Of a stretch of DNA of 64,000 bases, positions 9,043 to 57,600 are shown in pieces. The translations under genes and the position numbers were made by a program. The notes under the pieces are model-generated. The model did no database searches. It saw nothing but the letters and a program-made list of their open reading frames with translations, and was not told the DNA's origin. This DNA comes from an uncultured Polaromonas sp. (GTDB lineage: Bacteria > Pseudomonadota > Gammaproteobacteria > Burkholderiales > Burkholderiaceae_C), in contig CALMEI010000063.1 of NCBI GenBank assembly GCA_937863225.1, positions 2,137-66,136 of the forward strand, read 5' to 3'. The number at the start of each line of letters is the position of its first letter. The stretch's first letter is position 1.

Positions 9043-11973
9043 ATGACAACTTCTACCTTGAACCATTCCCATGCAGCCAACCCTGTGGTGGCACCCATGC
9101 GCTTATCGGGCTTAGAGCCTGTGCGCATTGCTGAAGACACGCTGTTCGTCAATGTGGGCGAGCGCACCAATGTGACGGGTTCTAAAGCCTTTGCCCGCAT
9201 GATTTTGAATGGCGAGTATGAAGCCGCTTTGGCCGTTGCACGGCAACAGGTTGAAAACGGTGCACAAGTGATTGACGTGAACATGGATGAAGCCATGCTG
9301 GACAGCCAAGCAGCGATGGTGAAGTTTTTGAACTTGATGGCGTCAGAGCCTGATATTTCGCGCGTGCCGGTGATGATTGACAGCTCCAAATGGGAAGTGA
9401 TTGAAGCCGGACTGCGCTGCGTGCAAGGCAAGGGCATTGTCAACTCCATCAGCATGAAAGAGGGCGTAAACGAATTCAAGCGCCAAGCGCGTTTGGTCAA
9501 GCGTTATGGTGCTGCTGCTGTGGTGATGGCGTTTGACGAACAAGGCCAAGCTGATACCTACCAGCGCAAAATTGAAATTTGCGAACGTGCCTACCGCATC
9601 TTGGTGGATGAGGTCGACTTTGCGCCTGAAGACATTATTTTTGACCCCAACATTTTTGCCATTGCCACGGGTATTGACGAGCACAACAACTACGCCGTCG
9701 ACTTTATCAACGCCACGCGCTGGATCAAGCAAAACCTGCCGGGCGCTAAAGTGTCTGGTGGCGTCTCCAACGTGTCGTTCAGTTTTCGTGGCAACGATGC
9801 CGTACGCGAAGCGATACACACCGTGTTTTTGTACCACGCCATTGCCGCGGGCATGGACATGGGCATTGTCAACGCCGGCATGGTGGGGGTGTACGATGAC
9901 CTAGAGCCGGTGCTGCGTGAGCGCGTGGAAGATGTGGTGCTCAATCGCCGCGAAGATGCCGGTGAGCGGCTGATTGAAGTGGCCGAATCCGCCAAAGGCG
10001 CTGCCAAAGACGACAGCCAAAAACTGGCTTGGCGTGGCACTGAAGCAGCGCCCGCCACCGTTGGTGCACGCCTGAGCCACGCACTGGTGCACGGCATCAC
10101 GGACTTCATCACCGCCGACACCGAAGAAGCCTACCAAGCTGTGCTGGCCAAAGGTGGGCGTCCGTTGCATGTGATCGAAGGCCCGCTGATGGACGGCATG
10201 AACGTGGTGGGCGATCTGTTTGGTCAAGGCAAAATGTTTTTACCGCAAGTGGTGAAAAGCGCCCGCGTGATGAAACAAGCTGTGGCGCATTTGATTCCCT
10301 ACATCGAAGAAGAAAAGCGCCAGCAAGCTGCGGCGGGTCAAGACGTCAAAGCCAAAGGCAAAATCATCATCGCCACTGTCAAGGGTGATGTGCACGACAT
10401 TGGCAAAAACATTGTCACCGTGGTTTTGCAATGCAACAACTTTGAAGTGGTCAACATGGGCGTGATGGTGCCTTGCCACGAAATTTTGAAAGAAGCCAAA
10501 GCGCAAGGCGCAGACATCATTGGCTTGTCAGGTTTAATTACCCCCAGTTTAGAAGAGATGCAATACGTGGCGGCAGAAATGCAAAAAGACGACTATTTCC
10601 GTCTGCGCAAGATGCCCTTGCTAATTGGTGGCGCCACTTGTTCGCGGGTACACACCGCCGTCAAAATTGCGCCGCATTACGACGGGCCTGTGGTCTATGT
10701 GCCCGATGCATCGCGCAGTGTGGGCGTGGCGCAAAGTTTACTCAGCGACCAAGCCGACAAATACATCGCCGAATTGAATACCGACTATGACAAAGTGCGC
10801 AGCCAACACGCCAATAAAAAGCAAACGCCGCTGTGGCCCATTGCCCAAGCGCGCGCTAACAAGTGGCTACCACCCGTTCGCCCTGAGCTTGTCGAAGGGT
10901 TTAAGGCTTCGACAGGCTCAGCGCGAACGGAAATGGCGTGGTGCGATTTCATTCCCGCACAACCCAAATTCATTGGCCGCCGCGTATTTAAAAACTTTGA
11001 TTTGGCTGAAATAGCCAACTACATCGACTGGGGCCCGTTCTTCCAAACTTGGGACTTGGCCGGCCCCTACCCCGCCATATTGAGTGACGCCATTGTGGGC
11101 GCGGAGGCGACACGCGTGCTGGCGGACGGCAAAGCCATGCTCAAACGCATCATCGAAGGACGCTGGTTGCAGGCCAATGGCGTGATAGCGATTTACCCGG
11201 CCAACTCGGTGAACGACGACGACATCGAGATTTACACCGATGCGTCGCGCAGCCAAGTGGCCATGACTTGGTACGGCTTGCGCCAGCAGACGGAAAAGCA
11301 AACCATCGACGGCCCAAACGGCGAACAGATACAACGCCCCAGCCGCTGTTTGGCCGATTTTATTGCCCCTAAAATTACATCCAATGCCAGCAATGCTATA
11401 AATAATATAGCACATCAGGCAATAAATACGCCGGCTACAGCTCAAAAAGACCATATAAATTCAACAAAACAAGACCACATCGGCCTGTTTGCGGTCACCG
11501 CGGGCTTGGGGGCTGAGAAAAAAGAAAAAGCCTTTCAAGACAGCTTGGACGACTACAGCAGCATCCTGTTCAAAGCGCTGGCCGACCGCTTGGCTGAAGC
11601 GTTTGCTGAAATGTTGCACCAGCGCGTGCGTACCGATTTATGGGGCTATGCGCCGAATGAAAATCTGAGCGCCAAAGATTTAATCGACGAAAAATACCAA
11701 GGCATTCGTCCCGCACCGGGCTACCCCGCTTGCCCTGACCACAGCGTCAAAGCCGACATGTTCAAGCTGTTGCAGTGCGATGAAATTGGCATGGCGTTGA
11801 CGACAAGTTTGGCCATGACGCCCGCCGCCAGCGTGAGTGGTTTTTACATGGCGCACCCAGAAGCCACTTACTTCAACGTCGGCAAAATTGGCGACGACCA
11901 ATTGCAAGACATGCTGCAACGGCGTGGCATGGCGGAAAAAGACCTGTCCCGTTTGTTAGCGCCCAATCTGTAA
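9043..11973 (+). CDS. metH: cobalamin-dependent methionine synthase, pterin + B12 + AdoMet-activation modules only (no homocysteine-binding module)
   Basis: ATG at 9043 inside ORF 8947..11973. The protein begins at LSGLEPV...[12 protein letters not shown] (pterin domain). [10 protein letters not shown] is the B12 DxHxxG motif. [12 protein letters not shown] marks the activation domain. Confidence 0.95.
10876..10928. repeat. 53 bp imperfect palindrome inserted in frame in metH
   Basis: GTTCGCCCTGAGCTTGTCGAAGG (10876-10898) faces CTTCGACAGGCTCAGCGCGAAC (10907-10928). It encodes [19 protein letters not shown] in the Cob/activation linker, with no counterpart in E. coli MetH as I recall that sequence. 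Confidence 0.75.
11395..11460. repeat. dispersed 65-70 bp repeat family, copy inside metH (in frame)
   Basis: GCTATAAATAATATAGCACATCAGGCAATAAATACGCCGGCTACAGCTCAAAAAGACCATATAAAT matches the intergenic copies and encodes [22 protein letters not shown]. Confidence 0.8.
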
Positions 11974-12037
11974 GTGAGCCCATTAAGCGTCACGTTGTTA
12001 AGCGCAACTTTATCTGAGCTTGTTAAACTCGTGCACC

Positions 12038-57530: not shown

Positions 57531-57544
57531 CCAAAGTTAATGGT

Positions 57545-57600
57545 GTTTTTGGCCTCTAGGCGGCATGTTTGCTGCCTAGAGTGCTATTTAATTTATAGCG
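57545..57600. repeat. dispersed 65-70 bp repeat family, intergenic copy
   Basis: GGCCTCTAGGCGGCATGTTTGCTGCCTAGAGTGCTATTTAATTTATAGCG. It holds a perfect dyad, CTCTAGGC (57554-57561) with GCCTAGAG (57574-57581), and lies between convergent stops. Confidence 0.85.

Follow-up and report, generated by a model that had tools for sequence, protein, structure and literature searches.

The closest described systems to the element reported here are small dispersed bacterial repeats. Two published accounts (PMC3116915, PMC3337134) portray the REP, BIME and REPIN families as high-copy and lineage-specific, located at gene 3′ ends and without target-site duplications, and a third (bioRxiv 10.1101/2022.05.22.493013) describes REPINs as vertically inherited and long persistent. 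Rickettsia palindromic elements (RPEs) occur as in-frame copies in unrelated housekeeping genes, where they encode a recurring peptide and are tolerated in loops and linkers, while MITEs (miniature transposable elements with inverted repeats) can fuse to open reading frames (ORFs), supply peptides, and affect neighboring genes (PMC10969869). Here, we describe a 69-bp repeat from a 64,000-nucleotide stretch of DNA (hereafter, the window) of an uncultured Polaromonas sp. (GenBank assembly GCA_937863225.1, contig CALMEI010000063.1, positions 2,137–66,136 of the forward strand). On our best reading, the repeat constitutes a lineage-specific, small interspersed family that combines a REP- or MITE-like lifestyle with RPE-like behavior inside genes.

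An initial annotation of the window had reported a family of 65–70 bp, two-hairpin units at ten positions. The repeat is real: a profile built from these positions and searched with nhmmer recovers the unit at all ten (47–68 bits, E ≤ 6e-14). An IUPAC pattern of the conserved positions matches ten times in the window and not once in 100 shuffles, and a consensus 26-mer has three exact occurrences and a fourth with three mismatches, where none is expected (none in shuffles). The profile search also recovers a previously unlisted eleventh copy at 2760, giving 11 strong copies against none by chance, as well as two decayed ones. Related loci are cited below by labels of the form L001 (e.g., L084), and gene calls within them are simple ORF calls. 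The copies in the window are as follows:

1376–1430, − strand: decayed copy, antisense in the ORF at 3–2654 (ResIII/restriction type); 16.8 bits, E = 2e-4; weak and uncertain
2760–2828, − strand: copy, antisense in lipB (2678–3403, +); 50.8 bits; decayed in the L084 ortholog (24 bits)
6534–6595, + strand: decayed copy, antisense in tldD (5434–7005, −); 20.6 bits; 26.8 bits in L084, L085, and L088
11392–11460, + strand: copy, sense and in frame in metH; 50.6 bits
16588–16656, − strand: intergenic copy between convergent genes (a CoA-transferase-like ORF with its stop at 16584 and the stop of the ORF at 16664–17305); 65.4 bits
18994–19062, − strand: intergenic copy, 88 nt downstream of the tyrS stop; 68.5 bits
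26386–26456, + strand: intergenic copy, 3′ end 28 nt from the stop of the ORF at 26484–27200 (−); 53.6 bits
29541–29609, + strand: copy, sense in the ORF of a major facilitator superfamily (MFS) transporter (28626–29915), same frame as the metH copy; 56.2 bits
32645–32709, − strand: copy, codons 7–28 (signal peptide) of the MpaA-like amidase ORF at 31851–32729; 47.4 bits
35628–35697, + strand: intergenic copy, 3′ end 12 nt from the ampG stop (35709); 62.0 bits
40229–40298, − strand: intergenic copy, 3′ end 22 nt past the pcaC stop (40207) and 5′ end 36 nt before a DUF1840 gene; 50.0 bits
51786–51856, − strand: intergenic copy between convergent genes, with an extradiol dioxygenase stop at 51869; 63.7 bits
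57533–57601, − strand: intergenic copy that takes up all 73 bp between two convergent ORFs, whose stops are at 57530 and 57604; perfect second dyad; 53.5 bits

These coordinates bear out much of what the initial annotation had said of placement. Its seven intergenic copies lie 3–88 nt from a stop codon, three of them (16588, 51786, 57533) between convergent genes, and this placement at gene 3′ ends and between convergent genes does resemble that of REP and BIME elements. The three copies assigned to coding regions are truly intragenic (metH, the MFS transporter, and the start of the MpaA-like amidase gene), and two or three more can be added, in lipB, tldD and, weakly, the ResIII-type ORF. The claims about dyads fare less evenly. 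The GCTAT-N-ATAGC dyad ascribed to each copy is found as GCTAT-N7-ATAGC in the listed copies, save that 51786 reads GCTAC; the additional copy at 2760 reads GCTCA where the others have GCTAT. The second dyad is indeed perfect at 57554–57581, but the single mismatch attributed to most other copies applies to only about five, with more mismatches in the three intragenic ones.

A family profile of approximately 135 in-register copies, drawn from the window and related loci, defines the unit. It climbs from 0 to nearly 2 bits of information at positions 3–5 and is back to 0 by positions 71–72; because information vanishes outside positions 3–71, we take the unit to be 69 bp long, with the consensus TTTGCTATAAATTTAATAGCACTTTAGGCAATAAATACGCCGGCTACAGGCCAATTTTnCATATAAATT. 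The edges of the repeat are sharp, and the flanks are unrelated between copies. Within the unit, the near-invariant parts are TGCTAT, ATAGCA, TAGGCAAT, AATACGCCGGCTA, AG, and a few later bases, and the variable parts are the 7-nt spacer and positions 24–26, 35, 49, 52–55, and 60–65. The conserved core is asymmetric and spans about 55 bp, in which TGCTAT-N7-ATAGCA is followed by TAGGCAAT.AATACGCCGGCTA.AG. Copies were detected with the same profile whose conservation is measured, but orthologs defined by synteny and copies found independently of the pattern lead to the same conclusion. The information profile is not a search artifact, since it is reproduced (r = 0.86) by 79 copies that fall outside the pattern by which loci were retrieved.

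It is this primary sequence, and not any hairpin, that is conserved. The two-hairpin architecture initially proposed does not survive comparison across copies: there is no covariation, RNAalifold finds a consensus fold on neither strand, and single-stranded DNA folding of the copies is no better than that of shuffled sequence (z-scores of −1.0 to −1.2). The first hairpin is a conserved, A/T-rich, 6-bp palindrome with a 7-nt loop, in which every change produces a mismatch and none is compensated. In the second, some 70% of copies across the family have a G.G mismatch; the helix is only 70% paired, and few copies in the window show it in perfect form. A third hairpin, formed by the 3′ tail and the downstream flank, was considered and rejected, as its complementarity equals that of permuted controls and its folding is no better than that of shuffles. 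The view that the repeat matches no named family holds up in Rfam and in plasmid, phage, and viral collections. The sole Rfam match in the window above the gathering threshold is an S-adenosylhomocysteine (SAH) riboswitch that does not fall on a copy; the best sub-threshold Rfam match on a copy reaches 15 bits against a cutoff of 81 bits, and an E-value threshold likewise admits none. Plasmid, phage, and IMG/VR collections contain no match to the repeat, and one viral pattern match, of only 14 bits, was taken as chance.

Orthologous copies show this constraint on sequence. At intergenic loci shared between related genomes, the cores are 77–88% identical while the adjoining spacer DNA is unalignable, and four-fold degenerate sites in the flanking genes are 41–59% identical between the same genomes, which is near saturation. 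The copy at 16588–16656, for example, has a core 77% identical to that of the orthologous single copy at L084 17459–17523. A comparison of six orthologous pairs finds differences at 17 of 168 high-information sites (10%) and at 81 of 156 low-information ones (52%; p = 6e-17), such that about 28 high-information positions are held and the rest drift at the neutral rate. This uneven divergence implies position-specific purifying selection at single loci; neither the neutral decay of dead copies nor homogenization of whole tracts would leave such a pattern.

Wider sampling extends the picture of where copies lie. Of the 135 classified copies, 111 are intergenic and 24 wholly intragenic. Both neighbors could be classified for 101 of the intergenic copies: the two genes are convergent for 38 copies, co-directional for 57, and divergent for 6. 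A stop codon faces the 3′ end in 83 cases (median distance 10 nt) and is often overlapped by the unit, one frame of which itself provides a TGA; for the 5′ end, the corresponding figures are 56 cases and a median of 22 nt. At co-directional sites, 40 copies are reversed relative to transcription and 17 (30%) are forward. An asymmetric unit that occurs in both orientations argues for a role at the level of DNA and not of strand-specific RNA. Neighboring copies are direct in 48 of 78 cases, and the nearest inverted neighbors are at least 205 bp apart.

The intragenic copies were underrated in the initial annotation: they represent about 18% of the family and sit in frame, in essential genes. Fifteen of the 24 are read in one sense frame, which requires a change of the consensus TAG to CAG and yields a recurring peptide, and six in one antisense frame. 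Hosts include NuoG, IlvA, valyl-tRNA synthetase (ValRS), KdtA, the linker of an E2 acyltransferase, a thioredoxin-TPR protein, a 2-oxoacid:ferredoxin oxidoreductase, and the MFS transporter, and the housekeeping hosts have Pfam domains on both sides of the copy. Copies are on the sense strand in metH, ilvA, nuoG, and the E2 linker, and antisense in valS and kdtA. In the MFS transporter, the copy encodes residues 305–328 of a protein whose Pfam MFS_1 match spans residues 19–381. The metH copy lies within an insertion of about 31 residues in the MetH alignment that is absent from Rhodoferax aquaticus and other outgroups; relatives at 77–90% identity have it too, progressively decayed. The ilvA copy is likewise a 29-residue insertion, for which the assembly GCA_975104325.1 (L172) has an empty site. 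In the MpaA-like amidase, the repeat supplies the signal peptide (the N-terminus reads MYLIHKALAIAIIATQAINTPASVA), while the ortholog in L093 has a decayed copy and those in L092 and L094 start with a signal peptide of the ordinary kind, unrelated to the repeat.

Other intragenic copies are harder to describe as additions. Escherichia coli TldD aligns across the stretch occupied by the tldD copy with only a 2-aa gap. The N-terminal segment of LipB is no longer than that of Mycobacterium tuberculosis LipB, and the lipB copy is therefore not a plain insertion. In valS, an element-like stretch overlies a helix common to all Comamonadaceae ValRS:

valS stretch, L022 3638–3706, L175 11191–11248, and L174 ~11220: encodes MTKxxxxGVSIAKGAIDxVA

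This stretch is 80% identical to the repeat in some genomes and is ordinary sequence in L174, with scores of 51 bits in L022, 35.6 bits in L175, and 0 bits in L174; its length is equal in all three, and a Ser codon changes from AGC to TCT between genomes. It looks like either a block replacement, putatively by gene conversion from a copy of the repeat, or an old insertion with a compensating deletion. We also considered valS as the origin of the family and rejected it: L174 carries the family, yet its valS stretch is not element-like, so valS is not the source of the repeat.

With a probability of roughly 55%, we favor the explanation that the family is a non-autonomous interspersed repeat whose asymmetric, ~55-bp core is read as duplex DNA by a predicted protein. 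The core would then serve as a double-stranded protein-recognition site and not as an RNA or DNA hairpin, and its reader may be either a trans-acting mobilizing enzyme or a host protein that has co-opted the repeat. Copies would insert at AT-rich gene ends and persist where they are harmless, might occasionally be refreshed or pasted by gene conversion, and may provide homology for the gain and loss of islands of accessory genes. Survival of copies would, in turn, be shaped by selection, favoring gene ends, linkers, and the one tolerated reading frame.

Several observations weigh against a mobile repeat of this kind. The repeat ends (AATTTGCTAT... and ...CATATAAATT) carry less than 1 bit and share only an A/T-rich pentamer, and the consensus profile reveals no terminal inverted repeats there. 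No excess of flanking direct repeats indicative of target-site duplication was detected at any offset, for lengths of 2–6 nt, among the 135 copies. Identity between non-orthologous copies reaches no more than 89%, and close relatives have in common all copies in overlapping blocks, with every orthologous pair filled; given this maximum and this sharing, there is no sign of recent bursts or transposition. Nor was a clean case of presence/absence polymorphism of the element alone found between the close relatives examined, of which a metagenome scan for empty sites gave only three. The single junction suggestive of target duplication is that of ilvA, where comparison of the filled (L004) and empty (L172) sites shows the 6-bp direct repeat CCAACA flanking both ends of the insertion, but such a junction is equally left by microhomology-mediated deletion. 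Simple insertion also fails for the antisense copies in valS, tldD, and lipB, which replace native codons and add no length. As the initial annotation had noted, no transposase accompanies the copies: neither the ORFs adjoining them nor the islands examined encode one, transposase domains being absent from adjoining ORFs in a sample of 0.8 Mb, which is small. A tblastn search of 0.8 Mb of clade DNA, with YafM and IS200 TnpA queries, returned no match to a REP-associated tyrosine transposase (RAYT) or to IS200. Finally, conservation of old orthologous copies site by site would be unexpected for dead selfish DNA and points to a function at the level of the host. In the limited sample of related loci, there was, further, no multi-copy ORF family near the copies, and a candidate arrangement in which split halves of the unit surround a larger element was not encountered.

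A second explanation, which we consider much less probable than the first, is that the repeat is a genome-wide signal maintained through selection or through a molecular drive of biased gene conversion, and spread mainly by templated conversion. It is a tentative suggestion under this explanation that a predicted protein-binding signal of about 55 bp, and not selfish hairpin DNA, is kept at about one per 3–6 kb by the host or by drive. It is a similarly speculative proposal that the signal would be kept even in essential genes, partly by templated conversion that overwrites coding sequence, as in valS. Position-specific purifying selection at orthologous loci is consistent with such a signal, as are the lack of consistent target-site duplications, of terminal inverted repeats, and of a transposase in the sampled DNA, the overwriting of valS without change of length, and the tldD and lipB copies that involve no net insertion. 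The consensus also has A/T tracts every ~21–22 bp. However, metH, ilvA, and the L091 spacer discussed below are true insertions of new DNA, and both the binding protein and the mechanism would be hypothetical. Uptake sequences and architecture-imparting motifs are the natural comparables, though these are far shorter; to our knowledge, no uptake or architectural signal comes close to a ~55-bp motif in length, and DNA uptake sequences (DUS) and uptake signal sequences (USS) have higher copy densities than the 69-bp repeat. If correct, this explanation would imply a new kind of DNA signal, with in-frame protein remodeling as a by-product.

Somewhat less probable, in our estimation, is a role in transcripts, whereby the repeat would be a host cis-element acting in 3′ untranslated regions as a terminator, attenuator, or mRNA stabilizer, as proposed for REP and BIME elements. 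The tight association with stop codons, the enrichment between convergent genes, the conservation of orthologous copies, and the 40:17 orientation bias relative to the upstream gene could all be read in this way. The initial annotation had also likened the placement of the copies to that of terminator-associated elements. However, no terminator-like site with a GC-rich stem and T-run coincides with a copy in the 20 kb scanned (16001–36000), folding energy is at the level of shuffled sequence without covariation, and 30% of co-directional copies are in the opposite orientation despite the asymmetry of the unit. Copies in L050 and L083 lie 13–20 nt from both of two same-strand genes, where a terminator would cut co-transcription, and copies are also kept within genes, in both senses. 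A search for sigma-70 promoters within the unit yielded only two weak promoter-like matches coinciding with copies.

The third alternative arises from islands bounded by direct copies. The 2.5 kb at 16654–19151 are flanked in the window by the direct copies at 16588–16656 and 18994–19062, the most similar pair in the window; at the same site, L084, L088, and L089 each have a single copy and none of the enclosed genes. The insert holds two ORFs within 16664–18760 (−), which encode 213 and 465 aa and match nothing in Pfam or NCBIfam. In Ca. Aalborgiella (L083), a 5.9-kb island encoding a YadA-type adhesin and an isochorismatase lies between direct copies at 1024–1089 and 6991–7055, where the window has only the copy at 51786 (84% identical to the first of the L083 pair). 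Direct copies flank a restriction-modification system in L086, and copies flank a three-gene insert in L091, at a cho-SBP spacer that is empty and copy-free in L086. Such arrangements, along with the flanked accessory genes or one-ORF-one-copy runs of L050, L083, L086, and L091 and the prevalence of direct neighbors, might suggest an att-like site at which a site-specific recombinase would act on the TGCTAT-N7-ATAGCA core to insert and excise accessory genes; the 6-7-6 inverted core would conceivably resemble the layout of tyrosine-recombinase cores.

However, no integrase or recombinase is encoded in or beside any examined island, and neither island ORFs nor ORFs flanked by inverted copies include a recombinase or transposase, these being housekeeping genes or genes without a match. 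The repeat does not have attC architecture (its ends are not complementary and there are no GTTRRRY boxes), copies occur between and inside housekeeping genes in both orientations, and the L086/L091 site goes from zero to two copies. With up to one copy for every two intergenic regions, chance alone should give flanked islands, and the same pattern results from ordinary homologous recombination between repeats of 69 bp; given the high copy density, it is sufficient to account for the islands, and a dedicated site-specific system is not required. An att-like site is the least probable of the explanations weighed here, and we regard it as quite unlikely.

Other variable regions were observed among these relatives. 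A defense-like region upstream of lipB (window 1–2654; L087 1–3558), which encodes PIN_10, a ResIII helicase, and a restriction-endonuclease-like ORF, differs between close relatives (the window and L087 versus L084 and L088). Between lipA and a glyoxalase gene, L084, L088, and L089 have an AIPR abortive-infection gene where the window has a 52-bp spacer. A 2.4-kb insert in L092 (2276–4735), between an ABC transporter gene and the MpaA-like gene, is absent from the window. The same metagenome contig begins, at position 1, inside a copy matching window 29541–29609, and was probably broken there by the repeat.

The family extends well beyond the window, although its host range appears to be circumscribed. 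Homologs of MetH, IlvA, and ValRS place the window in the Comamonadaceae, among metagenome-assembled genomes (MAGs) labeled Polaromonas, Rhodoferax, and Burkholderiaceae, and a 99.8% identical contig is present in ENA sample ERZ794914. A scan of one genome per GTDB species found at least 83 eight-kb blocks with matches; among the matches listed, all but one come from 19 MAG assemblies, such that at least 19 MAG species carry copies, most with 47–55% GC. Among them are Ca. Aalborgiella aggregata, MFD04716.bin.1.357, and many "Polaromonas" MAGs from glacier streams. A Flavobacterium match in the same scan was rejected as chance. Approximately 200 copies occur in 0.8 Mb of related clade DNA; the 213 kb of loci that were retrieved on other grounds contain 35, or about one per 6 kb, with L086 the densest (nine in 23 kb) and L090 at the other extreme (none in 20 kb). 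No copies were found in 77 loci from high-GC Comamonadaceae (57–70% GC), and Rhodoferax aquaticus also has none. The sister-lineage MAG GCA_975104325.1 (L090, L172; 49–50% GC) has one strong copy in 34 kb, with a decayed metH copy and without the ilvA insertion, and offers a natural low-copy comparator for the family.

Several features around metH are distinct from the repeat. Directly upstream of the gene is the SAH riboswitch (RF01057; 8896–8999, +), which scores 53.7 bits where the cutoff is 37; because the ORF called from 8947 overlaps it, the real start of metH is at about 9097, as in P0001. The encoded MetH (9097–11973, +) begins at approximately profile position 321–340 of full-length MetH and so does not include the N-terminal homocysteine-binding domain, which is not encoded next to the gene either (a split metH). 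A second, unrelated repeat at 10873–10930 (+) is a GC-rich, near-perfect palindrome of 57 nt, of the type CCGTTCGCCCTGAGCTTGTCGAAGG...CCTTCGACAGGCTCAGCGCGAACGG. It is inserted in frame and translated, is common to P0035 and P0086, and is absent from 90%-identical relatives; the window has no second copy of it, and L052 has a partial match. A different short palindrome, of the same form as the Neisseria dRS3 repeat, occurs in the intergenic DNA of several relatives, often beside the 69-bp unit, and is absent from the window:

ATTCCCGC-N4-GCGGGAAT palindrome: L086 12928, 14520, 21809, and 21848; L091 21490; also in L062, L073, L078, and L175

The identification of this repeat adds a very dense and well-defined family to the known repertoire of uncultured Comamonadaceae that are widespread in freshwater, glacier streams, and wastewater. 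It has a practical consequence, as the repeat breaks short-read assemblies of these MAGs, and it also marks the boundaries of accessory islands. Because old orthologous copies keep about 28 positions while the rest drift neutrally, the family offers a clean system for asking whether REP-like repeats have a function and which protein reads them.

Comparison with known systems yields partial likenesses in each case. The one-ORF-then-one-repeat arrays of L050 and L083, with copies in the same orientation, recall integron attC sites. Unlike attC, however, the 69-bp unit has no R''/L''-L'/R' inverted core, GTTRRRY box, or complementary ends, no intI or other integrase occurs in the loci examined, and copies are dispersed among core genes in both orientations. 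Like MITEs (Correia/NEMIS, ERIC, RUP, BOX), the repeat is small, dispersed, non-coding, and able to fuse to ORFs; it differs in having neither terminal inverted repeats nor a consistent target-site duplication, and no parent insertion sequence with matching ends was found in the limited sample. The REP/BIME-REPIN elements of Enterobacteria, Pseudomonas, and Stenotrophomonas, which are mobilized by RAYTs, are alike in copy number, lineage restriction, placement at 3′ ends and between convergent genes, persistence, and the lack of a consistent target-site duplication. However, the unit lacks the stable, GC-rich palindrome of 20–40 nt that typifies REP sequences, its sole stem being 6 bp and A/T-rich, and it lacks the closely spaced inverted pairs of REPINs. 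It is also asymmetric and partly AT-rich, conserves primary sequence over ~55 bp, and is intragenic in 18% of copies.

In this last respect, the repeat is most reminiscent of the RPEs. Both occur in frame in unrelated housekeeping genes, with a recurring peptide (69 bp being a multiple of three), and both are tolerated in loops and linkers. RPEs, however, are palindromes of ~100–150 bp from obligate intracellular alphaproteobacteria, whereas the 69-bp unit is not palindromic overall, is mostly intergenic, and resides in free-living betaproteobacteria of freshwater, soil, and wastewater. Length, host clade, and the lack of overall palindromy, compared by description, argue against membership in the RPE families. 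The intragenic copies show RPE-like in-frame colonization of essential genes beyond obligate intracellular bacteria. The repeat is best filed as a new family among the small dispersed repeats of bacteria.

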